Shown here: positions 35,816 to 48,692 of the stretch, piece by piece
Numbering within the stretch: the first letter of the stretch is position 1
How the letters are laid out: every line of letters starts with the position of its first letter
Assembly (NCBI GenBank): GCA_045863235.1
Contig: BTUM01000005.1
Span: forward strand, 1 to 58,911
Direction: 5' to 3'
DNA: 58,911 bases
Source of the DNA: Candidatus Xenobia bacterium
GTDB lineage: Bacteria; Vulcanimicrobiota; Xenobia; Xenobiales; QWHO01
The notes under the pieces: generated by a model
The model's input: the letters and a program-made list of their open reading frames with translations, nothing else
What the model was told of the DNA's origin: nothing
Databases searched by the model: none
Translations under genes and position numbers: made by a program

Positions 35816-36044
35816 CCTGTCCTACGTCGGGCTTCCGGCCTGCTCAGCGAGTCCGCGCTGGGAGCCCGCTCGGTGTACGGCCAAGGCCCGGTAGCGGGGA
35901 CCCGGGGCTTTCCAGAACTTTTCAGCCATCCAGGCCAGAATACGCCCAAACGGGTCTGGAGGCACAACCATTCTTACCGCATTGTCCTACCGTCTGCCGG
36001 TAGCGTCCGCTTCGCGGCCGCCTGCCGAGCGGGTGGCAGAGTTG

Positions 36045-39000
36045 ATGGACGGAAAGGGCGAGACGCACGCGCTGCAGCGCCATCTCGAGACCCTCTGTCG
36101 GGTCACGGGCAGCGCCTCGGCGGCGCGCTCGGAGATGGAGTTCCTGCTCCAGGTCGCTCCCGACGACCCCGAGGCTCACAAGCGCTACGTCGAGCTCGTC
36201 AAAGCCGGCGACGGAGTCGAGCTCGACAGCCAGCGCAAAGCCTTCCAGGCGCTCGAGCAGAAGAACGAGCCCCAGTTGCACGAGCAGTACCGGCGCTTTC
36301 TCAAGACCTGCGCTCAGCCTTCGGTGGCCTACAACGAGTTCGTCTGGATGGACCAGAGCCTGCCTGCCAGCTCCAGCCGCTCCCGCGGACTCGAGCGCTA
36401 CCGCCGGCTCATCGAGCACTCCGACGGGGTGGGCTGGGAGCAGCGTCGCGCCGCGTTCAAGAACGGGCTGCTGAGCGCCGCCACCCCCAGCGCTCCGCCC
36501 CCGCCTCCGGCCTTGAAGTCGGCTCAGGACGAGATCGCCCGCCTCACCGGCGACAGCGCCCTGGCGGCCCGCGAGCTGAGCGCCGTCATCGCCGCTCTAC
36601 CTCCCTCGGCCGAGCAGGACAAGCAGCTCAAACGCTACGTCAAACTGCTCGAGAAAGCCGACGGGGTGGAGCTTGCGAGCGTGCGGGAGGCTTTCGTCAA
36701 GCTCGAGCAGGCCAACGATCCCAAACTGCGAGAATCCTTCGACAGCCTGCTCAAAGCCTGCGGGGGCAATGCCGCCCGAGCCCTGAGCGAGTGGCGCTGG
36801 ATCGATTCACAGCAGGCCGACATGGGGCGCTACGCCAGGTTGCTCTCTCAGAGCGAGGGGGCTTCGCCCGACCAGGTTCGCAACGCCTACCTGCACCAGA
36901 CCGACGAGAAGGCCCAGCCTCCCCGCCTCAAGCGAGCTCACCAGGAGATCACCCGGCTGACCGGGGACGAGAGCCTGGCCAGCCGCGAGCTGGACGCCCT
37001 GGTGGCGGCCCTGCCCCCCAGCGCCGAGCCCGACAAGCAGCTCGACCGCTACCTCGACCTGGCCGAGAAGGCCGATGGAATGCAGCTTCCCAGCGTGCGC
37101 GAGGCCTTCGTCAAGCTCGAGCAGTCCGGTGACAAGAAAAAGCGCCAGGGTTTCGAGAAGCTGCTGGAAGCTTGCGACGCCGACGCCTCCCGCGCCCTGA
37201 GCGAGTGGAAGTGGCTCGAGACGGTCCAGGGAGACATGACCCGCTACGCCCAGTTGCTCTCCCAGAGCGGCGATGCCAGCACGGCCCAGGTTCACCAGGC
37301 CTACGTCAACCTGCAGGGCCACCAGCTCGGCAAGGGCGAGGTGCAGGACGCGCTGGCCGATGGCTCCATCCTGGGCCTGCGCAAGCTGGGCCTCAACCGC
37401 TCGCTGGCCAGGCTCGAGGATCTGCTCGGCGACCGGGGCGCGGCCGCCCAGGAGCTCCAGTTTGCCCTCTCTCAGGTCAAGCCGGGCCAGGACCAGGGCG
37501 CCGTGATCGGCCGCTACGTGGAGTTGCTCGAGAAGGCTGACGGGGTGGGGGTCGCCAGCGTGCGCGAAGCCTTCCCCCTGACCGAGGACCCGAAGGTCTA
37601 CAGGTCGTTTTTGGCCCTGCTCGAGACCGGTCGTCAGGAGATCGCTCCCGCCCTGAGCGAGCTGAAGTGGCTGGGCCAGAATGCCGACGAGATCGATCGC
37701 TATCGGAGTCTGCTGGAGGTGGCCGGCGAGCGCTCCAGCGCCCTGACGGCCGCCTATCCTATCCTCAAGAAGCTGCCCGCGGGAGCCATCGAGCAGTTGC
37801 GCCCCTTATTGAACCAGGGTCTGCGCGTGGACGAGGCGGCTCGCGACCTGGAGACCCTCTACGCCCATCTCCCGGCCGGCGAGGATCCCGCTCCCGTACT
37901 GAAGACTCTCGAGCGACTGCGGGCCGAGGCGGGTCCTGATCAACACCAGGGGGTCCGAGCGGCTCTGACTCGCCTGCTGAAGGCCCCGGCCGCCGAGCGC
38001 AAGACCCAGGAGAAGAACTACCAGCTTCTGCTCGAGGTGGAGGGAGATCCCACCCTGGCCCTGCAGGACCTGGAGTGGCTGGTGGCCGACAAGCGCGGCG
38101 ATCTGACCCAGCGCACCCGGTCTTACACCAACCTGCTGGCCGAGAGCACCAATTCCCAGCGTGAGCCGATCCGCCAGGCCTTGCAAGAGCTGGCGACCAC
38201 CCCCGGTCCACCTCCGCGCACCGGCCTGTGGACCCGAATCTGGGGCAGCACCTCACGCGAGGAGGCTTTCGAGAAGCTTTACCGGATGCAGGACGGCAAC
38301 GCGGCCCAGGCGATGAAAGACCTCAAAGCCATCGAGTTCCACCTCGACCCCAACGAAGACCTCAAAAGCGCTCTCAAAGAGTTCGAGAAGCTGCTCGAGC
38401 AGACCGGCGAGCCCACTCGAACCCGGCAGGCCTTCGAGGCCATTCGGGGTCGTCCGCCCGAGGAGCGCAAGGAGTTCAAAAAGGAGCTGTTCGCTCTCAC
38501 CGCCGAGCTCGGCGAGCTCGAGCTGGCCCGGCGTTCGCTGCAGGTGGTGCGCGGCTCCAAGAAGGCCGAGGAGCGCCAGAAGCGGATGGAGGCCCTGATG
38601 GGCTGGGTTCAGAGCGAGAAGTCGGCCCCCGCCGGCGTGGCCATGCTGGAGGCCTCGGCCAACCTGATGATCAACAGCCAGGGCATCGGGGCGGCCAGCG
38701 CTCAGGTGACGGCCATGCGCAAGAAGGGCGTGGCTCCCGAGCTTCTGAACACGCTGACTTACGCCGCCGCCCGTTGCTCGCGCATGCCGGGCAGCCCCTA
38801 TCCCACCCCGGACGAGACGCTCTCGCACTATGTGGAGCTGTTCGGCCACGCGCGCAGCGCCAGCGAGGTGAGCGCCATCGAGAAGATCCTGGACGCCCCC
38901 GGGGCCGGCACGGCTCACGACCGTTCGCAGGTGGTGGCCGGCATCCTCAAGGGCCTTTCCCGGGTGGAGGGCTGTCGCGAAGAGCTGGCCTACCTGGGCC

Positions 39001-39341
39001 AGGCCCTCCAGCCGGACGAGTTCCTCTCGGCCGGCAAGGCCTATGCCCACCTCTTCGCCACTATGGGCGCGCACGGGATGGGGGTCGGCGGAGCGCGCAG
39101 GGAGCTGGAATGGGCCCGCGAGTTCAAGCGTACGAAAGTGCCCGCGGCCGATCTCTCCACCATTCTGACCCGGCTCACCTCCAAGATCCTGATCGGGAGC
39201 CCCATCGACAAGGCACGCGCCATGGTGGAGGAAGAGATGAGCGGCGGCCAGATCATCGGCGAGAAGGACGAGTGGGTCATCATCGGCGGCACGCGCGTGC
39301 GACGCGCGCGCGGAGAGGGGGCTCAGAGTGGAGCTGCGTGA
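36045..39341 (+). CDS. Giant alpha-helical repeat protein (at least four ~120-aa internal repeats) ending in the shared C-terminal motif (…EWVIIGGTRVRRARGEGAQSGAA)
   Basis: The long ORF has no recognisable domain. The start is uncertain: TTG 35982 or ATG 36045. Confidence 0.65.
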   Translation: MDGKGETHALQRHLETLCRVTGSASAARSEMEFLLQVAPDDPEAHKRYVELVKAGDGVELDSQRKAFQALEQKNEPQLHEQYRRFLKTCAQPSVAYNEFVWMDQSLPASSSRSRGLERYRRLIEHSDGVGWEQRRAAFKNGLLSAATPSAPPPPPALKSAQDEIARLTGDSALAARELSAVIAALPPSAEQDKQLKRYVKLLEKADGVELASVREAFVKLEQANDPKLRESFDSLLKACGGNAARALSEWRWIDSQQADMGRYARLLSQSEGASPDQVRNAYLHQTDEKAQPPRLKRAHQEITRLTGDESLASRELDALVAALPPSAEPDKQLDRYLDLAEKADGMQLPSVREAFVKLEQSGDKKKRQGFEKLLEACDADASRALSEWKWLETVQGDMTRYAQLLSQSGDASTAQVHQAYVNLQGHQLGKGEVQDALADGSILGLRKLGLNRSLARLEDLLGDRGAAAQELQFALSQVKPGQDQGAVIGRYVELLEKADGVGVASVREAFPLTEDPKVYRSFLALLETGRQEIAPALSELKWLGQNADEIDRYRSLLEVAGERSSALTAAYPILKKLPAGAIEQLRPLLNQGLRVDEAARDLETLYAHLPAGEDPAPVLKTLERLRAEAGPDQHQGVRAALTRLLKAPAAERKTQEKNYQLLLEVEGDPTLALQDLEWLVADKRGDLTQRTRSYTNLLAESTNSQREPIRQALQELATTPGPPPRTGLWTRIWGSTSREEAFEKLYRMQDGNAAQAMKDLKAIEFHLDPNEDLKSALKEFEKLLEQTGEPTRTRQAFEAIRGRPPEERKEFKKELFALTAELGELELARRSLQVVRGSKKAEERQKRMEALMGWVQSEKSAPAGVAMLEASANLMINSQGIGAASAQVTAMRKKGVAPELLNTLTYAAARCSRMPGSPYPTPDETLSHYVELFGHARSASEVSAIEKILDAPGAGTAHDRSQVVAGILKGLSRVEGCREELAYLGQALQPDEFLSAGKAYAHLFATMGAHGMGVGGARRELEWAREFKRTKVPAADLSTILTRLTSKILIGSPIDKARAMVEEEMSGGQIIGEKDEWVIIGGTRVRRARGEGAQSGAA

Positions 39342-39762
39342 CAGCCGCCTGCCCTATCAGCAGCGAGCCCTCGAGCGCCGCCTGGCGGTGGCTCCGCGGG
39401 TGGTGCTGTCCACCGCCGATACTTACGTCAGCGCCGCATCGCTCTCGACCTCCGGGGTACTGCCTTTGCCGGGCGAGCTGTGGCGGCCCACTGCCGAGGT
39501 GGCCCACGGGCCGCTCCGCCTTGCCTCGGGGGCACTGGCCCTGGCGCACGGCATCTCAGGTGTGCAGACTTTGATGAACGCGCCTTACCGCGAGGACACG
39601 CGCTCTCGCAACCTGCGTCGGCTCCAGGGAATCGCCGACCTGGTGGCAGCGGCGGGTCTGGCCGGACAGGCCTTCGGATTGGGTCCGTGGACGGCCGCTC
39701 TGGCCGTGGCCGGAAGTTTGACTGCAACCACAACCAGCTGTCTAAGGAGGACAGGGTCATGA
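39328..39762 (+). CDS. Glycine-zipper small membrane protein, paralog 1 of 3
   Basis: GTG follows a GGAGAGGGGG RBS and overlaps the end of the giant protein. The 'AGQAFGLGPW' motif is shared with the next two genes. Confidence 0.6.
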   Translation: MELRDSRLPYQQRALERRLAVAPRVVLSTADTYVSAASLSTSGVLPLPGELWRPTAEVAHGPLRLASGALALAHGISGVQTLMNAPYREDTRSRNLRRLQGIADLVAAAGLAGQAFGLGPWTAALAVAGSLTATTTSCLRRTGS

Positions 39763-40142
39763 TCACCACGTTAAGCAACATCCCGTACAGCCAACGCAAG
39801 CGCGAGGCGGCTGCGAAAGCGGTGCCAAGACTGGCCATCAACGCCGTGGACGGCTATGTGGCCGCCGCTACGTTGCAGGGCTTTGGCGGCCAGGCGGCTG
39901 CGGGCACTTTCAGCGTGCTCTCGGGGGGGCTGGCGGCCTTCCACGTCGGCTCGGGCATCCGCTTCATGATGAAGGCGAGCGACTCGCGCGACGAGGTCGA
40001 TAAGAAGCGGTTGCAGACCATGGCCATCGGCGAGGTGCTGACCGGAGTCGGCTTTGCCGGGATGGCCTTCGGACTCGGCCTGTGGGCGATTCCCGTGGTC
40101 GCCCTGGGCGAGATCACCACCAACTTTGCCCGGTTCACGTAA
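39759..40142 (+). CDS. Glycine-zipper small membrane protein, paralog 2 of 3
   Basis: An AAGGAGG RBS sits 8 nt upstream. The start and stop overlap as ATGA with paralog 1. The 'AGMAFGLGLWAIP' motif is present. Confidence 0.7.
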   Translation: MITTLSNIPYSQRKREAAAKAVPRLAINAVDGYVAAATLQGFGGQAAAGTFSVLSGGLAAFHVGSGIRFMMKASDSRDEVDKKRLQTMAIGEVLTGVGFAGMAFGLGLWAIPVVALGEITTNFARFT

Positions 40143-40152
40143 GGAGGAAGCC

Positions 40153-40572
40153 ATGCAGGTATCCGCAGCTCAGATTCCAACCTCTGTCTATCACGCCCCC
40201 ACCAGCTCGGCCGGCACCTACGCCGACCAGAAGCGGGGCAACCGCTACCAGTCGGCCGGCAAGCTGGCCCTGGGCGCGGCCGACCTCTACATCGCGGGAG
40301 CCACCGCCTTTGCCAACACCGGCACCCTGGGAGAGATCATGCCCTGGATGAGCGGTGCCGCGGCGGTCTATCACGGGATCAAGGGCATCAGCCAGGTGTA
40401 TGCCGAGTATGGCGAGCGCACTCCTCAGGAATACGCCACCGGCACCGGCAACTTCATCATGGCTGCAGGCTTCGGGGCGCTGGCCTTCGGGCTCGGTCCC
40501 TGGGCTCTACCCATCATCGCCATCGGCCAGGCGGCGGTGCTGGCAGGCGACCACTACGGAGGCAAGCGCTGA
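40153..40572 (+). CDS. Glycine-zipper small membrane protein, paralog 3 of 3
   Basis: An AAGGAGG RBS sits 5 nt upstream. The 'GALAFGLGPWALPIIAIG' motif is present and the protein ends '…HYGGKR'. Confidence 0.7.
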   Translation: MQVSAAQIPTSVYHAPTSSAGTYADQKRGNRYQSAGKLALGAADLYIAGATAFANTGTLGEIMPWMSGAAAVYHGIKGISQVYAEYGERTPQEYATGTGNFIMAAGFGALAFGLGPWALPIIAIGQAAVLAGDHYGGKR

Positions 40573-40681: not shown

Positions 40682-41809
40682 TCAATGAGGCTGCGCAAGG
40701 TAACGCTCGGGCTCCTGCTCGAACTTACGCCGGCATTGGGCCGAGCAGAAGTAGTGCGTCTGGCCGCGATAGCCCCATCGATCGGATACCCGGGCAGCGG
40801 TCAGGCTCATTCCGCAGACCGGATCGACGAACTCCAAGCCGTCAGCAAGACTTGGCACGCTCGGGCTGCTCGTAACGTCCCACTGAAGTCGGGGCGCTAC
40901 AGTTGCCCAGACCAGGTCGGGCAGGACCTGCTGACAGAGCACCTGAATCCGCCGGCTCAGATCGATCGCCCCCTGCAGCGAACGTTCCGAGCTCCCCTGG
41001 CAGGCCTGGACATGCTCGACGACCAGCTTCTGGATGGCCTGGTCGAGCTCATCCGGACGCCAGAGCCAGGCTTCCAGCGCAGCCACGAAGAGCTGTGCTC
41101 GCAGGGCCGCGCCGACGGCTTGCAGGATCGTCTGCCGCCAGAGCCAGCTCCCGCGCTCGGGATAGACATGGCACCATACGTCGACCTCGCCGCGCAGCAG
41201 TCGGGCGCAGTCGCCCGGCTCCTGCCGCAGGAAGACCTGGCGCAGCTCGCGCTGGTGCTGCTCGAGAACCGGCTCGAGCTCCCCCGAGGTGCGCGAGCTC
41301 GCCAGGCTCTCGGGGACCGGCCAGCTCTCTCGGCAACGGATGCGCAGGCCTTCCAGACGTTGCCAGGCAAGGAGTCCGCATTCCCCATAGAGACGCTGTC
41401 CTACGGCGGCGTCGATTTGATCCTCGAGCGTCCCTGTCCCGGATGACCCGGGTTGCAGGTGGGCCAGAAGCATCGGTCCAAGGCGGTCGAGTTGCTCCGC
41501 GCCCAGACCCGTCTGAAGGCGGCGATGAGACTCCAGAATATCCTCGCGGAAGAGACGAACGGCCTCGTTGCGCTGAGCGCGCTGGCACTCAGCCTCCTCT
41601 GCCGTCACCCAGCCGCTTGCGGTTTCCACCTTCTGCGTCGCCTGGTGGACGAAGCTTTGAATCTCCTCGTAGGACTGTGCTAACCGGGCCATGGCGTCCG
41701 GTGCCGACGACCTGGCCGCCGGCTCCGAAGGGCTAAAACCCTGCAAGAGATGACGGAAGAAACCTCCAAACATCGTCAGGGCTTCTTCTTCATCATTTCG
41801 GCATTGCAA
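40682..41809 (-). CDS. YHS (TRASH-like) metal-binding domain protein with large N-terminal helical domain
   Basis: The C-terminus 'VDPVCGMSLT…YRGQTHYFCSAQCRRKFEQEPERY' is a YHS domain. The gene lies downstream of cusA on the same strand, and the start is uncertain. Confidence 0.55.
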   Translation of the reverse strand: MQCRNDEEEALTMFGGFFRHLLQGFSPSEPAARSSAPDAMARLAQSYEEIQSFVHQATQKVETASGWVTAEEAECQRAQRNEAVRLFREDILESHRRLQTGLGAEQLDRLGPMLLAHLQPGSSGTGTLEDQIDAAVGQRLYGECGLLAWQRLEGLRIRCRESWPVPESLASSRTSGELEPVLEQHQRELRQVFLRQEPGDCARLLRGEVDVWCHVYPERGSWLWRQTILQAVGAALRAQLFVAALEAWLWRPDELDQAIQKLVVEHVQACQGSSERSLQGAIDLSRRIQVLCQQVLPDLVWATVAPRLQWDVTSSPSVPSLADGLEFVDPVCGMSLTAARVSDRWGYRGQTHYFCSAQCRRKFEQEPERYLAQPH

Positions 41810-41981
41810 CCGTTGGCCGAGCAGGCCATGGGCGCCCCGCTCGGAGACGAGGAAGACCTGGCGTTATCGCCGGGTGAAGAGCTGGCTGGCGCCGGGGTTG
41901 GACTGCCCGACTCCCCCGAGCACCCGCCGGCCAGGAGTCCGGCCACCGCGGCCGCCATCAGCTTGTGGAAATCCCGTCGTT

Positions 41982-44900
41982 TCATGGTGTCTCCTCCTTT
42001 TTCATGACTCGTCTGACCCAGCGGGACAGATCGTCGATGTAAGTGTGCATGATGGGAATGTCAAAGAGCGAGAGGATTGTGCCTACCAGCAGACCGCCCA
42101 CCACGGCTGTGGCCAGGGGCTGGTAGGCGTCGAGGCCCGTGCGCGGCGCGAGGGCCACCGGCAGCATCACGATCAGCGAGATCCCGGCCGTCATCAGGAT
42201 CGGCCGCAAACGTTCGGGGCAGGCCCGCACGATCGCTTCGTCGCGTTCCATCCCCTGCTCGCGATAGCGCAGGATCTGGTCGATCAACAGCACAGCAGTG
42301 GTGATGTCCATTCCGGTCAACACGATAATGCCCAGGATGGACACTGTGGAGAACGCCTGTCCGGCCAGCCACAGGGCCGTGAAGACGCCGGCCAGCTCGA
42401 GCGGCAGCGAGGCGATCATCTGGAACGGCTGCAGAAACCCTCGGAACTGCACGACCAGCACGAGATACATCAAGACCAGGGCAAACACCAGACCCTGAAT
42501 GAGGCGACGAAAGCTCTCCATCATCTGGGTCATGTCGCCCCGCATCTCCATCCCGTAACCGGGCGGAAAGTTCAGCTCTCGGTAGGCGTTGGCCACCAGA
42601 TTCATCACGACGTCCATCGAGGGCAGGTTGCCGATCCGGTAGTAACCCGTGACCCCGATGACTCGACGCAGGCCATCATGCTCGATCACGCTGGGGCCGA
42701 CCGTTTGCTCGACGGTGACGACGGACTTCAGGGGCACGGTCCTGCCGTCCGAGGTGGTCAGGTAGACCCCCTCGAGGTCCTCGGCGTTGGCGCGTCGGTC
42801 CTGCTCATAGCGCAGCAGGATGGTGTTCTGGCGAATGTTGGGCAATCGATAGAACTGCTCGGTGAGTCCACCTCGCAGGGAGTAATAGGCTTGCTCGGCG
42901 ATCTCCGCGGGTGAGAGACCGAGCTCGCGCGCTCGTTGCCGATCGACGTGCAGACGCATTTCCGGCAGGCTGAGACTCCAGGTGGTGCCGGGTTGGAACA
43001 ACTCGGGCATCTTTTGCGCGATCCGCAGCGTCTCGGACCCCAGGCGGTCAAGCTCTCGAAGGTCGGGTCCGTAGATGTAGACGTGGATAGGCGCAGCGGC
43101 CGTAGCCATCACATCCGAGCCCATCTCCTTGATCTGAAGGCGACGAATCCCCGGTATCGTGGCCAGGGCCTCGCTTTGAATGGCGTCCATCACCTGCCAG
43201 ATCGTTCGGTCTCTCGAGTCTTTGTCCGAGAACGTCAGCATCATGCTCGCCCCGTTGACCTGGGGCATGGAATAGCCCGTAAAGAAAGGTGTCCAGCTCT
43301 CGAACATCGACTCCTGGCCGATCTCGATGCTGGCCTTCTCGAGCTCGGGATGCTTCAACATGATTTGCTCGAGCTGGTGGACGGCCTTCTCCGTAGCCGC
43401 AAACGAAGTACCCGGTTGCATCTCGAGAAAGCCGTTGGCCTGGCCGACGTCCGCCAGCGGCATCATCTCGCTGCCGATGAAGTAGTAGAACGTGATGCCG
43501 ACGATCAGCGTGGCCAGCACCCGGCAGAAGTTCACGAATCGATGCCGCAGCGTCCAGCGGATGGCCGAGGCATAGCCGCGCTCGAGTCGGTCGAGGCCTC
43601 GCTGGAAGGGATCGAGCACACGGTAGAGCCAGCGTCCCAGGGGATGCCGACGCTCTTTCTCCCGCACCTCCTCGGGCCGCAGCAGGTTGGCGCACAGGAG
43701 CGCCGTCAGCGTGAAGGAAACCAGCATCGAGGCCAGGAGGCCGAAGATCAGGGGCCAGACCAGCTCGACGAACATCAAGCCCACGATGCCCCCGGAGAAG
43801 AGCAGCGGCGACAGTGCCAGCACCATCATCAGGGTGGAAGCGACGACCACCAGGCGCACCTCCGCGATTCCCTCCATGGTCGCGGTCCTGGGGTCCTGGC
43901 CCAGGCGCAGGTGCCGCTCCACCGAATGGATGTCGATGATGCTGTCGTCTACCAGGCGTCCGATCGACAAAAGCAGCCCGATCAGGGTCCCGCTGTTGAA
44001 GGTCATGCCCAGGGGCAACATCATCAAAACGGCCAGCGCCAGGGAGGTGGGCACCGTCACCATGGCGATCAGCGTTCCGCGCCACTCACCCAGGAAGAAG
44101 AGAACGGCCAGGGCGGTCAGCACAACCGCCAACCCCAGCTCATGCCAGACGTTCGCGAACAGGATGTTGACGAAGCTGGCGTTGTCGTAGGCGACCTCGA
44201 ACTTGAGCCCGGGGTTCTGGCGCTCGAGCTCGCGAACCACCCGCATTACCTGCGGCACGACCTGGGCCGAGCTCGCGCCCGGGTTCTGGATGACCGAGAC
44301 CTCGATGGACGGGATGACCTCGCCCTGCGTACCGGGGAGGTGCTTGAGGTAGTGGTAGGCGCTGCGTCTCTCCCAATGGGTGTCCAGCACCTCGGCCACA
44401 TCCCGCACGTAGACCACTCGCTCGCCCTCGGCCTTGATCGGGATCGCGCGCACGTCCGCCGCGCTGAGCACCTGAGAGTCGACCCGCACGATCGCTTCGC
44501 GTCCCCCCGAGGTCAGCGTTCCGGCCGTCTCGGCCGTGTTGAAGCCGTCCAGCGCCTCGCGCAGGTCCAGGATGGAGACCCCGAAGCCGGCCAGCTTCTC
44601 GCGGTCCACGACCACCTGCAACTGGCGGCGGTAGCCGCCGAAGACGACCACCGAGTAGACGTCGGGCAGGCTTTTGATGCGAGCAATCCCGTGGTTGTCG
44701 GCGAACTCGCGCACCCGGTCGGGAGTCCAACCCCGGGCCGGGTCTCCGGTCAGGGCCAGCGACAGAATGGGTACGTTGAGGGGGTCCACGGGGATGACGA
44801 ACGAAGGCTTGAGGTTGGCTCCAGTTGCGGGCATATTGGCCGCGGCCACGTCGAGTAAGCTTTGCACCTCGACGCGCGCTTTGCGCATGTCGTGTCCGTA

Positions 44901-45197
44901 GGGAAACTCCAGGGTAACGATCGAGAACCCGTCCTGGGAGGAGGAGCGAATGAAGCGCAATCCGGGAACGTGCACGAGCTGCTCTTCCAGTGGCTTGGAA
45001 ACATACGTTTCCATCTCCTGAGCCGAAAGGCCCGGCATGGTGGTCACCACGCCCAGCATCGGACTTTCCACGTAAGGCGCGAATCGGCGGGGGATGCGCT
45101 CGCTGATTGCCACCCCGGCGAGCCATAGGAGGGCGACGTAGATGGCCACCACGGCATAGGGATGGTCGATGGACCAGCGAGGCAGAGCTCGCATCAT
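41982..45197 (-). CDS. cusA: Heavy-metal efflux RND transporter (CusA/CzcA family)
   Basis: The 1071-aa RND pump has an HME-type N-terminus (IDHPYAVVAIYVALLWLAG…). Its start overlaps the membrane fusion protein gene's stop (ATGA). Confidence 0.85.
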   Translation of the reverse strand: MMRALPRWSIDHPYAVVAIYVALLWLAGVAISERIPRRFAPYVESPMLGVVTTMPGLSAQEMETYVSKPLEEQLVHVPGLRFIRSSSQDGFSIVTLEFPYGHDMRKARVEVQSLLDVAAANMPATGANLKPSFVIPVDPLNVPILSLALTGDPARGWTPDRVREFADNHGIARIKSLPDVYSVVVFGGYRRQLQVVVDREKLAGFGVSILDLREALDGFNTAETAGTLTSGGREAIVRVDSQVLSAADVRAIPIKAEGERVVYVRDVAEVLDTHWERRSAYHYLKHLPGTQGEVIPSIEVSVIQNPGASSAQVVPQVMRVVRELERQNPGLKFEVAYDNASFVNILFANVWHELGLAVVLTALAVLFFLGEWRGTLIAMVTVPTSLALAVLMMLPLGMTFNSGTLIGLLLSIGRLVDDSIIDIHSVERHLRLGQDPRTATMEGIAEVRLVVVASTLMMVLALSPLLFSGGIVGLMFVELVWPLIFGLLASMLVSFTLTALLCANLLRPEEVREKERRHPLGRWLYRVLDPFQRGLDRLERGYASAIRWTLRHRFVNFCRVLATLIVGITFYYFIGSEMMPLADVGQANGFLEMQPGTSFAATEKAVHQLEQIMLKHPELEKASIEIGQESMFESWTPFFTGYSMPQVNGASMMLTFSDKDSRDRTIWQVMDAIQSEALATIPGIRRLQIKEMGSDVMATAAAPIHVYIYGPDLRELDRLGSETLRIAQKMPELFQPGTTWSLSLPEMRLHVDRQRARELGLSPAEIAEQAYYSLRGGLTEQFYRLPNIRQNTILLRYEQDRRANAEDLEGVYLTTSDGRTVPLKSVVTVEQTVGPSVIEHDGLRRVIGVTGYYRIGNLPSMDVVMNLVANAYRELNFPPGYGMEMRGDMTQMMESFRRLIQGLVFALVLMYLVLVVQFRGFLQPFQMIASLPLELAGVFTALWLAGQAFSTVSILGIIVLTGMDITTAVLLIDQILRYREQGMERDEAIVRACPERLRPILMTAGISLIVMLPVALAPRTGLDAYQPLATAVVGGLLVGTILSLFDIPIMHTYIDDLSRWVRRVMKKEETP

Positions 45198-47374
45198 CGG
45201 ACCACGACCGTTCCCCGCAGCATGTCCATCCCGCACTGAAATTTCAATGTGTGGCCGGGGTGCGCGGGCAACTCGACCGTCACGGGCTCGTTGAGAGGCA
45301 GCTCTTTTCGCAGTTCGAGCTCGGGGAAGATCACTTCCGTGCCACAGGTCGACTCTGTCGTGCGCAGAAAGGTGACCTTCACGCTGTCTCCTGCGGGCAG
45401 AGTCAGGCTGGCCGGCTCGAAGCCCTTCTCGGTGACGCGGATCGTTGCGGTCTCCACGGCCGCTGGCGTCGATACCGCCACGGGGTCGTTCTCTCGCAGG
45501 CCTGTCGAGCTCGAAGTGATCACGAGCTCGCCCTCCTCCAGGCCGGACCGCACCCCGGTGGTCTCACCGTTGCTGACCCCGAGCTGGATCGCAACCCGGT
45601 GGGCTACGTGGCCATTTCCTTCCGGTCGGGCGACCCAGACCCAGCGGTCCTCCCCGTGCTCCGAGATGGCCGATGTCGGCACGAAGAGGGCGTCCTCGCG
45701 CGCTGCCGTAACGATTTCGAGCCGGACCAGGTTTCCCGGCAAGAAGCGATGATCGCGGTTGGGGATCACCGCTTCCACGACCCCCTGCCGCGTCGCGGGG
45801 TTGACGGCCGGGCTGACCGAGGTCACCCGGGCCGCCACTCTGCGACCACGCGTGTCCACGAACCGGACCGGGTCCCCTTTCGATACCCGGCTCAGGTCGG
45901 CTTCGCTCACGTTGGCCTGCAGGCGGATGGGATCGATCTGGGCCACATCCACAATTGCGGTCCCCGGCTGTACGAGCACGCCGGGGCTGATGCGGCGGGC
46001 GCTCACCACCCCGTCCAGGGCGCTGCGCACCTCGGAGTAGCCCAGGCGCGCTTGCGAGCTGCGCAAGCGGGCCTGGGCTCCGGACAGGGAAGCGGAGGCC
46101 TGGCTCACCTGGCGCCGGCGCATTTCCAGCGTCGCTTCGACCGACTTCACGTGGGCATGGTGCGCCTCGACCTGGGACCGGGCTGCCTGCATTTCGGCTC
46201 GGGCTGCCTCGACCTCGGACAGGGCCTGGCTCAGCTTCTGCTCCGCTGCCTCTGTCCCGGCCTGGTCGCGCTGCAGGTCTTCCTGAGACAGGCCGCCGGT
46301 CTGCGCGAGCGCGCCCGAGCGGACGAGCTCGCTGCGCTTGAAGACCGCTTCGGCCCGGGCCGCCTCGACCTGCGCCCTGGCCTGGTCGACCCGGGCGCGC
46401 GCGGTCTTGACCGCAGCCTCCTTTTCGGACCGCTCAGCCTCGGCCAGCTCCACCTCGGCCCGCGCCTGGTCCTCCTCGGCCCGGGCCACGTTCACCGCCT
46501 CGAGCGCCTCGCGGGCGGCAGCCTCGCTCTCGAGCCGCTCGGGCTCGAGCAAGGAGACATCCAGTCTCGCCACGACCTCGCCTTTGGATACCTGGTCACC
46601 GACGTAGAAGGGCATCCACTCGATGATCCCCTCGGTGCGAGGATACAGCGGTTGCTCCTGATAGGCAACCGCCTGGCCGGCGTAGCTCACGCTGGCTTCC
46701 ACTCGTCCGCGCCGGACCGGGACCGTCTCGACGGCGAGAGTGCCGGGTGGGGCCGGCATGCTCATCTCCATCACCTGGGCCTCGATCGGCGTCATGGCAC
46801 CGGGCCTCCGAAAGTGCCGCACGACATAGATCGCGCCGGCGGCCATCACGGCCAGGAGCAGGAGGCCACCGAGCACCTGGCGGTTGGCCACGGTTCGCCA
46901 GGATGGCAGATGGCCGGCTCGATGGAGCGCGAAACCGGCCCCGAGCAGAGCCGCGAGCCCGACCATGCCCAGAATCACGGGCCAGGGTGAACCGCTTTCG
47001 GCGGCCGTGCTCTGGCCCGTGGCCAGGTCGAACGTGACGGTTCCCTCGCCGGCCTCTCCCTGGATGGTCACCTTGACCCGGTATGCTCCGGCCATCGAGA
47101 AGCCTGCTCCCACGCGGTACACGCCGGGCTCGCCGGTCGGGCGCCCCGTCTGCTCGCGTTCCCCCATGTCCATCGTGGGCATCCTGGCCAGAGCCTTGAC
47201 CGTGGCACCATCAACCGGCTTTCCTGTCTTGTCAAGCACGCGGACCACCAGCTCTGCGGGCCCGACCGGGACCACCTCCGGGTCGACGCGGAGCTCCACG
47301 CGGTATGGCCCCGCCGTACCGGTCAGACCGAAGGCAACCGCAGCCAGCCAGAGCCAGATCAGAAAGCGTCCCAT
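45194..47374 (-). CDS. RND efflux membrane fusion protein with N-terminal FixH/YtkA-like periplasmic domain and C-terminal CusF-like metal-binding domain (SilB-like architecture)
   Basis: It has a signal/TM segment, a Met-rich beta domain, an HlyD-like coiled-coil and barrel core, and a C-terminus '…AHPGHTLKFQCGMDMLRGTVVV' (a His plus M-x-M site). A GGGAGG RBS precedes ATG 47374. Confidence 0.75.
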   Translation of the reverse strand: MGRFLIWLWLAAVAFGLTGTAGPYRVELRVDPEVVPVGPAELVVRVLDKTGKPVDGATVKALARMPTMDMGEREQTGRPTGEPGVYRVGAGFSMAGAYRVKVTIQGEAGEGTVTFDLATGQSTAAESGSPWPVILGMVGLAALLGAGFALHRAGHLPSWRTVANRQVLGGLLLLAVMAAGAIYVVRHFRRPGAMTPIEAQVMEMSMPAPPGTLAVETVPVRRGRVEASVSYAGQAVAYQEQPLYPRTEGIIEWMPFYVGDQVSKGEVVARLDVSLLEPERLESEAAAREALEAVNVARAEEDQARAEVELAEAERSEKEAAVKTARARVDQARAQVEAARAEAVFKRSELVRSGALAQTGGLSQEDLQRDQAGTEAAEQKLSQALSEVEAARAEMQAARSQVEAHHAHVKSVEATLEMRRRQVSQASASLSGAQARLRSSQARLGYSEVRSALDGVVSARRISPGVLVQPGTAIVDVAQIDPIRLQANVSEADLSRVSKGDPVRFVDTRGRRVAARVTSVSPAVNPATRQGVVEAVIPNRDHRFLPGNLVRLEIVTAAREDALFVPTSAISEHGEDRWVWVARPEGNGHVAHRVAIQLGVSNGETTGVRSGLEEGELVITSSSTGLRENDPVAVSTPAAVETATIRVTEKGFEPASLTLPAGDSVKVTFLRTTESTCGTEVIFPELELRKELPLNEPVTVELPAHPGHTLKFQCGMDMLRGTVVVR

Positions 47375-47375
47375 G

Positions 47376-48692
47376 TCAGTACCTCCCGGTCGCAAACAGA
47401 AAGTCGGATTCGGCCAGGCCCCGGCGGTAGGCCGCTTGAATCCGGTTGGTGCGCGCTCGGCGAAGCGTGGCAAGCGCGTCCAGCACCTCGAGGTGGATCC
47501 CACGCCCCAACTCGAAGCGCATGCGGGCGATGCGAAGCTCCTCCTCGGCCGCGGTCACTTCCGTTCCGGCCAGCTTCTCATTTTCGAGGGCCGCCTTCCA
47601 GCGCGCTCTCTCACGTTCCACCTCGGCGGCCACGTCGTATTCCAGCTGGCGCGCTTCGAGCAGCCGGGCCTGGCGCATGGCCTCTGCCTCCTCGCGTCTG
47701 GCGCCTCGCTCGCCCCCGTCATAGAGCGACCAGGAGAGCACTAAACCCACCTGATATCCGCCGTCGAAAGGGGTGGGCCCGGCCAGCTCCGGCTGCCTGG
47801 CCTCGGCCATGGCGTAGAGGGCCAGTTGCGGGGCGTACTCGGACAGCACCTCAGCCACACGCCGATCCGCCGCCTCGGCCGCATAGCGGGCCACAGCCAG
47901 GTCGGCTCGCTCGGCCAGCGCCGCGCTGACGATGTCCTCGAGCTCTCCTTCGGGTAGGGGTTCGGGAACGGGAGCCGTCAGAGTGAAACTGGACCCGGGA
48001 TCGACGCCCATGGCGTTCTTCAGGTTGATCATGGCTGTCTCCGTCCCAGCGTTGCTATCGTTGACTTTCTGCCGCGCCGAGGCCACCTCGGCCTCTACCC
48101 GGAGCACGACATACCGAGCCACCCGTCCGACGGACTGGCGCTCGCGGACGATGCGGAGCAGCTCCTCTTGCTGGGCCAGCTCCCAGGCTGCGGCGTCCAG
48201 CTCGGAGCGAGCCTGGAGCAATTCGAAGAACGCCTTGCGGACGTCACGCGCCTTCTCGCGCATGGTGAGAGCCAGACGTGCCAGCGCGGTGCGCTCTCCC
48301 GCTTTCGCCTGCGCCAACCGGGCTTGCAGACGTCCACCGGTGTAAAGCGGCAGCATGAGGCTGAGATTGGTGCTCAGCCCCCCGCCGGGCAGGTTGGTCC
48401 AAAAACCAGGCTCGACGCCGGGCGCGCCACTGACGATCATGTCAGTATCACCGGCGTTGAGATACACACCCAGGCCGAGCTTTGGGCGGAAGGCAGCCTC
48501 CGCTTCGGAGGTACGGGCTCTGGCAGCCCGCATCTCCGCCTGGCTGACGGCTACCGCAAGGTGGTGCGCCAGGGAGTACTGGACAGCTTGTTCGAGGGTC
48601 AGCTCACCCTCAAGCTTCGGCCGTTCAGGTTGGCCGAAGGCCGGGAGGACGAGGAGCAGCCCCAATACCCCCAGGAGAGCGCGTTGCAGCAT
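47376..48692 (-). CDS. TolC-family outer-membrane efflux protein (CusC-like)
   Basis: It has a signal peptide (MLQRALLGVLGLLLVLPAFGQ) and TolC-like tandem repeats. Confidence 0.8.
   Translation of the reverse strand: MLQRALLGVLGLLLVLPAFGQPERPKLEGELTLEQAVQYSLAHHLAVAVSQAEMRAARARTSEAEAAFRPKLGLGVYLNAGDTDMIVSGAPGVEPGFWTNLPGGGLSTNLSLMLPLYTGGRLQARLAQAKAGERTALARLALTMREKARDVRKAFFELLQARSELDAAAWELAQQEELLRIVRERQSVGRVARYVVLRVEAEVASARQKVNDSNAGTETAMINLKNAMGVDPGSSFTLTAPVPEPLPEGELEDIVSAALAERADLAVARYAAEAADRRVAEVLSEYAPQLALYAMAEARQPELAGPTPFDGGYQVGLVLSWSLYDGGERGARREEAEAMRQARLLEARQLEYDVAAEVERERARWKAALENEKLAGTEVTAAEEELRIARMRFELGRGIHLEVLDALATLRRARTNRIQAAYRRGLAESDFLFATGRY

Follow-up and report, generated by a model that had tools for sequence, protein, structure and literature searches.

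What three small tandem genes contribute behind the gene of a giant repeat protein is the question raised by a contig of Candidatus Xenobia bacterium (BTUM01000005.1, GenBank assembly GCA_045863235.1), the analysed stretch of which, 58,911 nucleotides in length, is referred to here as the window. The three genes, designated P1, P2 and P3, had been described in an initial annotation as glycine-zipper paralogs of a family not recognisable from sequence, reminiscent of holin, immunity or chaperone-like accessory genes. Judged by sequence comparison, P1, P2 and P3 represent a new, lineage-restricted protein family which, together with the upstream gene for a predicted helical solenoid (the giant), makes up an operon unlike that of any described family, and whose function we can only infer.

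Three paralogs in a conserved four-gene cassette

The genes of the cassette and their putative ribosome-binding sites (RBSs) are the following.

35982-39341, + strand: giant gene, an open reading frame (ORF) for 1119 residues with G+C at third codon positions of 0.87; gene callers start at the ATG at 36045, giving 1098 residues
39312-39321, + strand: RBS of P1, GGAGAGGGGG, within the end of the giant gene, as read from the sequence
39328-39762, + strand: P1, from the ORF list, GTG start, 144 residues; DxY at residues 31-33, His74, AFGLGPW at 115-121
39744-39750, + strand: RBS of P2, AAGGAGG, 8 nt before the ATG; AAGGAGG or GGAGG in other cassettes
39759-40142, + strand: P2, ATG start, 127 residues; DxY at residues 31-33, His62, AFGLGLW at 103-109
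40141-40147, + strand: RBS of P3, AAGGAGG, 5 nt before the ATG, overlapping the TAA stop codon of P2
40153-40572, + strand: P3, 139 residues; Asp44, Tyr46, His74, AFGLGPW at 111-117

The positions and product lengths of 127-144 residues given in the initial annotation are confirmed by the ORFs and by independent gene calls on three metagenome contigs, which yield identical P1, P2 and P3 products, and its description of a shared AFGLG.W motif, of near-perfect AAGGAGG boxes before P2 and P3, and of overlapping gene ends also proved accurate. In the window, the last 14 nt of the giant gene are shared with P1, the ATG of P2 lies on the TGA of P1 (ATGA), and a gap of 10 nt separates P2 from P3. The GTG start of P1 is supported by ATG-initiated orthologs that share its N-terminus, and orthologous cassettes contain a purine-rich stretch equivalent to its RBS. 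Within the operon of the window nothing promoter-like or terminator-like was found. Taken together, this gene organization suggests that P1-P3 are co-transcribed with the upstream solenoid gene, at junctions that point to translational coupling.

The identity between P1, P2 and P3 (31-33% for each pair, with pairwise BLAST E-values of 7e-18, 2e-12 and 2e-10) identifies them as true paralogs, and the motif A-F-G-L-G-x-W is common to all three. In a family alignment of 33 sequences, for which residue numbers follow P3, Asp44, Tyr46, His74, Gly106, Gly113 and Trp117 are invariant, while A111, F112, L114 and G115 are conserved in at least 90% of sequences. The family signature consists of DxY in the first predicted helix (H1), SGxxAxxHxxxG in the second (H2) and AAGFAxxAFGLGxW at the turn between the third and fourth (H3 and H4), every element of which occurs in all three proteins of the window. 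Relatives split into three orthogroups with distinct C-termini, ending in ..LTATTTSCLRRTGS for P1, ..GE(I/V)TTNFARFT for P2 and ..GQAAVLAGDHYG for P3.

A word-indexed search of 5.8 billion proteins recovered 35 relatives, all of them unnamed or 'hypothetical' and from Xenobia/Eremiobacterota-type sources, with the closest database proteins carrying the labels 'bacterium CPR1', 'Candidatus Xenobia bacterium' and 'Candidatus Eremiobacterota bacterium'. An exhaustive hidden Markov model (HMM) search of 1.84 billion cluster representatives returned just 43 relatives at E <=1e-3, and a second search with a broadened profile contributed one extra member and no tie to any named family. A P3-type gene was present in only 3 of 185,579 species genomes, and related contigs are labelled Eremiobacteraeota or Vulcanimicrobiota. 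Distant family members come from a metagenome-assembled genome (MAG) labelled Armatimonadetes, and natural two-domain fusions of 221-262 residues each occur among the distant members (P0062, P0066 at L011:8001-8765, and P0067; L numbers denote contigs on which family members or related genes lie). One contig, L008 (CAYYHB010000174.1), labelled 'uncultured Burkholderiales bacterium', codes for a P3 of 95% identity and for the giant tail found in the window, which probably means that this MAG contig was mis-binned or mislabelled.

Comparison of P1-P3, the giant and the other window proteins that carry its C-terminal tail motif (described below) with Pfam, NCBIfam, PHROGs and PADLOC gave nothing significant; the PHROG matches of P1-P3 were solely to families of unknown function, at E 0.005 or weaker, and the family profile returned 0 matches among all PDB sequences at E up to 10. 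The family is therefore as unrecognisable from sequence as first stated. A search of the literature on Xenobia and Eremiobacterota found nothing on P1-P3 or on the solenoid genes.

To place the genes in context, we compiled the surroundings of every family member that could be looked up. Triplet loci comprise the window (equivalent to L001, L008 and L009), L004/L005, L017, L019+L010 (one cassette on two contigs) and L020 (truncated), and further L006/L007, L012, L018, L013 and L021. The order solenoid-P1-P2-P3 holds in 9/9 triplet loci, each time behind a homologous solenoid gene, an arrangement not shared by the distant single or fused relatives, which do not lie near any solenoid homolog. 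Gene spacing is equally well conserved: the solenoid gene and P1 overlap by 4-14 nt in 9/9 cassettes, P1 and P2 overlap by 4 nt in eight of the nine, and P2 and P3 are separated by 9-14 nt with a GGAG(G) box in all. Divergence of P1-P3 parallels that of the solenoid, and the flanking genes differ between lineages, indicating that the four genes move as a unit. The MAG GCA_039809865.1 contains two complete, divergent four-gene cassettes (L019+L010 and L013).

In four cassettes, the genes directly upstream of the solenoid encode a conserved 164-aa protein with many His/Asp motifs (..HGPRHW..FHDSRR..) and a divergent regulator of the GerE type. The window has YebC at this place and no homolog of the 164-aa protein, the genes of which are located as follows.

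L004:5242-5736: gene for the 164-aa protein
L017:1665-2159: gene for the 164-aa protein
L019:1611-2108: gene for the 164-aa protein
L020:2085-2579: gene for the 164-aa protein

Predicted fold and membrane topology of P1, P2 and P3

AlphaFold2, run with the family alignment, predicts an up-down four-helix bundle (pLDDT 86, pTM 0.75), with P3 helices at residues 23-53, 58-82, 91-111 and 115-135. In this model the 'Gly-zipper hairpin' of the initial annotation is made up of H3 and H4, which are joined by the GLGPW turn and belong to a larger bundle, so that the hairpin itself stands while the description was too small for a protein predicted to fold as four helices throughout. The same fold had also been ascribed to the proteins encoded at 10528, 21514 and 33749; these do contain Gly/Ala-rich hydrophobic hairpins, but hhalign probabilities of 0.1-0.5% indicate a likeness of composition and not homology. 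Glycine spacing in the family is mainly i, i+7 (G99/G106/G113 and G125/G132 in P3), and the profile search that had been proposed against the Pfam Gly-zipper families matched none of their models to P1-P3 or to the 33 members at E up to 1. The nearest Foldseek matches of the model are non-significant (E >0.4) and mostly small integral-membrane subunits. A kinship of the GPW turn with WXG100 proteins was considered and rejected, as the WxG motif is absent and the turn reads GPW-A/T.

The helix cores have mean Kyte-Doolittle (KD) values of 0.9-1.2 and contain some one to two charged or His residues each (range 0.85-2.2), and the KD19 score of the H3-H4 region reaches 1.7-1.9 in P2 and P3, above the classical threshold of 1.6. 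The distribution of basic residues is strongly asymmetric: the family mean of Lys plus Arg on the inferred cytoplasmic side is 3.67 at the N-terminus, 3.55 in the loop between H2 and H3, and 1.12 at the C-terminus (8.3 per protein), as against 0.09 in the loop between H1 and H2 and 0.00 in the H3-H4 turn on the opposite side. This asymmetry amounts to a positive-inside signature, as expected of an inner-membrane protein with four passes and cytoplasmic N- and C-termini. Hydrophobicity, charge asymmetry and the four-helix model together indicate that P1-P3 very probably integrate into the membrane, in agreement with the initial annotation, and their origin is best explained by triplication, long ago, of a small inner-membrane protein with four helices.

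From their positions along the antiparallel H1 and H2, the conserved Asp (H1) and His (H2) are expected to be placed at much the same depth, within the half of the bilayer nearer the cytoplasm. Both are replaced only in P1, and there only in L013 and L021, the two most divergent cassettes (P1 orthologs at L013:8001-8441 and L021:8001-8393), the P2 and P3 of which keep both residues. Loss from P1 alone is what is commonly seen where a hetero-oligomer subunit has turned purely structural, and suggests a functional Asp/His site in P2 and P3, with P1 as a structural partner.

The giant solenoid protein and its C-terminal tail

The protein encoded upstream contains internal repeats of ~145 residues in its N-terminal half (residues 188-305 and 334-443, for example, are 63% identical). 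Its AlphaFold2 model is an all-alpha solenoid of ~63 short helices (pLDDT 77.5), for which a fold search returned generic helical-repeat matches only, such as designed helical repeats and TALE-like proteins. Searches of the giant for a signal peptide, a transmembrane segment or a hydrophobic segment found none (maximum KD19 1.08), and by this model it is a soluble all-alpha solenoid. The giant may be exported, as the initial annotation had considered possible, though it has neither a signal peptide nor a transmembrane segment. Orthologs of 27-66% identity head every cassette, and a search with the giant found only such close orthologs. The shortest solenoid homolog, of 639 aa, matches the giant over the latter's C-terminal ~650 residues (E 2e-11), which marks these residues as the conserved core and the N-terminal repeats as a lineage-specific expansion.

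Near its C-terminus the giant carries a short motif that recurs in four other proteins of the window, named here by the start of their genes.

11401-11451: tail motif of the 10528 protein
20397-20459: tail motif of the 16680 protein
22006-22053: tail motif of the 21514 protein
23533-23580: tail motif of the 22129 protein
39249-39311, + strand: tail motif of the giant, QIIGEKDEWVIIGGTRVRRAR, residues 1090-1110, containing WVIIGGTRVRR; 39249-39341 when counted to the end of the gene

The pattern [VILT].[VIL]GG[VITA].[VLI] matches 5/34 window proteins, in every case within the last 25 residues, whereas shuffled proteins average 0.03 tail matches. The fuller consensus is h-x-h-x-E-xxx-h-x-[VI]GG[VIT]x[VL]x[KR][KR], ending 5-13 residues before the stop codon. 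In the AlphaFold2 model of the giant, residues 1089-1119 have pLDDT <50 and include a small beta-hairpin (strands 1099-1101 and 1104-1106) that corresponds to WVIIGGTRV. The five carriers share essentially the tail alone, except for the giant and the 16680 protein, which have a marginal similarity over ~115 C-terminal residues (30% identity, E 0.015). Pfam and NCBIfam scans recognised no domain in any of the five, and all of them lack a signal peptide. The motif may be a lineage-specific sorting or docking tag. Two known kinds of terminal signal were considered and rejected: a sortase-type signal, since no transmembrane segment follows the tail and no sortase gene lies in the window, and an encapsulin cargo peptide, since the window has no encapsulin gene.

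Across the triplet loci, the solenoid has the full tail motif in 8/9 and a degenerate one in the ninth (L021); beyond the window it is kept in the giants of L004, L006/7, L012, L013, L017, L018 and L019. The genes that follow the other tail-motif genes of the window (10528, 16680, 21514 and 22129) include no family member and no small hydrophobic ORF, so the association of P1-P3 is with one solenoid family and not with the tail motif as such. Of the co-occurrence with tail-motif proteins envisaged in the initial annotation, the part that stands is the place of P1-P3 behind the solenoid in other genomes, and the part that does not is its extension to tail-motif proteins in general. The two points on which that annotation had staked its proposal, membrane location and conserved co-occurrence in other genomes, have thus both held up.

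Further occurrences of the tail were noted. It ends an ORF of >440 residues in L009 (L009:10529, ..FLAVGGVRLKVRSS*), and in L015, from an 'Armatimonadetes' MAG, it lies near the end of a 224-aa protein, while a T2SS-F-like protein ends in ..LQIGGVSLR* (L015:2120-2794 and L015:3819-5042, both on the - strand). The tail-motif proteins at 10528-11451 and 21514-22053 of the window have a central Gly-rich hydrophobic hairpin of ~40 residues, and with a single such hairpin both ends of each protein, tail included, would share one side of the membrane. The 1259-aa tail-motif protein at 16680-20459 appears by eye to have helical N- and C-terminal parts and a distinct, possibly non-helical middle. Among the orphan proteins at 10528, 16680, 21514, 22129 and 32404, P1-P3 and many family members, a large number begin with M-[QKN]-[VI] followed by a polar Pro/Ser/Ala-rich stretch; [LI]PY[SQ]QR near the N-terminus is common to P1 and P2, and the giant has (Y/F)RLPVA near its start.

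The setting of the cassette is a chromosomal segment with G+C of ~66%, in which no tRNA or Rfam element was found. The flanking genes are ordinary: a branched-chain amino-acid ATP-binding cassette (ABC) transporter, a kinase-GAF-GGDEF protein, a carbonic anhydrase, YebC, and two resistance-nodulation-division (RND) efflux operons with outer-membrane factors, the latter implying a diderm cell envelope. One of these, a Cus-like RND operon (40682-48692, - strand), lies directly downstream of P3 on the opposite strand. Its products are a YHS-domain protein, an AcrB-family pump, a membrane-fusion protein with YtkA and cupredoxin domains, and an outer-membrane factor; since the operon does not recur beside other cassettes, it is unrelated to the finding on P1-P3. 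Elsewhere in the window, 14354-16680 and 23580-24987 lack ORFs that have either a family match or convincing coding statistics, G+C falls to 0.585 at 24-26 kb, and a long ORF at 11013-14354 combines an extended Gln-rich stretch of low complexity with a von Willebrand A domain at the C-terminus. This ORF overlaps the end of the 10528 gene, and its true start is therefore probably downstream of 11451.

Candidate roles and comparison with known systems

We tentatively favour a role for P1-P3 as a membrane anchor or receptor by which the solenoid is docked at the cytoplasmic side of the inner membrane. P1, P2 and P3 would assemble into one hetero-oligomeric membrane complex of ~12 helices, with the N-terminus, the H2-H3 loop and the C-terminus of each protein facing the cytoplasm, and would thereby tether the soluble solenoid to the cytoplasmic inner-membrane face through the conserved, basic cytoplasmic N-terminal peptides ([LI]PY[SQ]QR..) of the P proteins and/or the C-terminal beta-hairpin tail of the solenoid. 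We infer hetero-oligomer formation, direct solenoid binding and the anchoring role from several features of the cassette. Overlapping, ordered genes and parallel divergence suggest that the four proteins act together at fixed stoichiometry, and the three separately conserved orthogroups, together with the natural two-domain fusions, argue for a hetero-oligomer. Anchoring or reception is favoured because the solenoid is soluble and signal-less, and because the basic N-terminal peptides and loops of P1-P3 are predicted to be cytoplasmic. Several observations weigh against such a role. H1 and H2 are hydrophobic only weakly, and the distant single or fused members away from any solenoid homolog indicate that the fold can work without one. 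The tail is probably read by a factor other than P1-P3, with no contact to them required, as the motif is found on at least four other window proteins that have no P1-P3 neighbours. Finally, anchoring alone would leave the invariant Asp, Tyr and His inside the bilayer unexplained.

In a rival explanation, P1-P3 would form a hetero-oligomer that conducts ions or small solutes, in which the Asp and His of P2 and P3 would relay protons or bind metal and the solenoid would serve as a cytoplasmic regulator, a scaffold or a membrane-energised output element, following a stator- or transporter-like logic. Invariance of Asp, Tyr and His across the family, the similar depth expected of Asp and His, and their loss from a single subunit, typical of hetero-oligomers with fewer active than structural subunits, are all consistent with conduction, as is the precedent of paired small multidrug resistance (SMR) transporters, overlapping paralog pairs of small four-helix proteins with a membrane-embedded carboxylate. 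We nevertheless consider conduction quite unlikely, given that no sequence or profile match links the family to SMR, MotB/ExbD/TolR or any transporter family, that contact between Asp and His follows from helix positions only, and that the strict linkage to a solenoid of 840-1135 aa would be left unexplained. Another rival is a holin-like or other Sec-independent conduit that would release the signal-less solenoid across the inner membrane. Although the solenoid lacks both a Sec/Tat signal and a transmembrane segment, it bears a conserved flexible C-terminal tag common to other orphan proteins, and small multi-pass membrane proteins are encoded directly downstream of it by overlapping genes; furthermore, a holin-dependent route out of the cell has precedent for large toxins without a signal, as with TcdE of Clostridioides difficile and the large clostridial toxins (PMC3369941, PMC9527704). 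P1-P3 also resemble holins in size, topology and charge (127-144 aa, four predicted helices, basic C-terminus), features that are not specific. Export is unlikely, since P1-P3 have no significant PHROG or Pfam similarity, holin and LrgA families included, and no endolysin or peptidoglycan hydrolase was seen near any of the nine cassettes, as judged from the Pfam annotation of the called genes and from window scans, so that the holin likeness first suggested is not borne out. Three obligatory distinct subunits would moreover be unusual among holins, a coupled 1:1:1:1 operon speaks for a stable complex more than for a catalytic exporter, and partners of this kind do not accompany the other tail-motif proteins.

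If P1-P3 were not resident membrane proteins but soluble Ala/Gly-rich four-helix bundles, they could serve the solenoid as chaperones or adaptors, or be secreted and, like translocators, insert into a foreign membrane; their modest mean helix hydrophobicity and their polar Pro/Ser-rich N-termini, which resemble those of the window's other orphan proteins, would agree with this. It is highly improbable in view of the Lys plus Arg asymmetry (8.3 versus 0.09), the signature of insertion into the producer's own inner membrane, of helices with far too few charged residues for a soluble surface, and of KD19 values >1.6 in P2 and P3; the chaperone-like role proposed initially likewise fits a four-pass membrane protein poorly. 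Several tandem small membrane paralogs directly downstream of a large orphan protein also recall the tandem immunity genes of polymorphic-toxin loci, where P1-P3 would be antidotes shielding the producer from a membrane-active giant toxin. This suggestion of the initial annotation is the most improbable of all: the paralogs are fixed, distinct orthogroups in every cassette and not variable arrays, the giant has its conserved core, and not a polymorphic region, in the C-terminal ~650 residues, its predicted fold is a plain alpha-solenoid, and neither a variable C-terminal toxin domain nor a delivery domain, and no toxin, Rhs, PT-TG or secretion-associated domain, was found in it. In a broader proposal, the cassette would be one visible piece of an undescribed Xenobia system for protein sorting or membrane docking, in which the C-terminal beta-hairpin tag marks many orphan proteins that are not otherwise related and a heterotrimeric P1/P2/P3 channel or receptor of ~12 helices translocates or activates the solenoid via the buried Asp and His; we regard this as very unlikely, though less so than a soluble bundle or an immunity function.

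Irrespective of mechanism, the cassette contributes a previously unannotated family and a strictly conserved four-gene operon in a bacterial class without a cultured member. Should P1-P3 prove to be the membrane partner of the solenoid, they would provide a clear case of a hetero-oligomeric anchor or channel made by gene triplication, and would also offer an experimental handle on the unexplained C-terminal tag carried by 5/34 window proteins. If they are merely structural anchors, the result is a useful annotation and no conceptual advance. The tag is the more intriguing element, and lies largely outside the finding on P1-P3.

Several known systems invite comparison. Like TcdE-type exporters and 'type 10' holin/endolysin secretion, the cassette places small multi-pass membrane proteins with a charged cytoplasmic C-terminus beside a very large signal-less protein; unlike TcdE and holins, it has no holin homology, three obligatory four-helix paralogs and no endolysin partner, and its candidate cargo is a helical-repeat scaffold instead of a toxin. 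With SdhC and SdhD of succinate dehydrogenase, P1-P3 share the plan of small helical-bundle paralogs encoded in one operon with a soluble partner on the cytoplasmic face, and a conserved His inside the bilayer, whereas they have four helices instead of three and a non-enzymatic solenoid as partner; the sole sequence similarity to Sdh is a chance-level Pfam Sdh_cyt match in one family member (E 0.065). Paired SMR proteins of the EbrAB/YkkCD type are four-helix proteins of ~110-140 residues with a membrane carboxylate in helix 1, encoded by adjacent, often overlapping paralogs and forming obligate hetero-oligomers. P1-P3 resemble them in helix number, in the carboxylate of H1 and in overlapping paralog genes, and differ in being three instead of two, in a long polar N-terminal extension, in a strongly biased, fixed topology and in a giant soluble partner; no Pfam or NCBIfam match, and none among PDB sequences with the family profile, supports membership of the SMR family. 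The Pfam families Gly-zipper_Omp, Gly-zipper_OmpA and Gly-zipper_YMGG have in common with P1-P3 Gly/Ala-rich hydrophobic helices with small-residue packing motifs, from which the family is set apart by the lack of any model match and by glycines that, in P3, recur at i, i+7 within a four-helix bundle. In general terms, the cassette is an instance of a wider theme, in which small paralogous membrane subunits are partnered with a large soluble protein.

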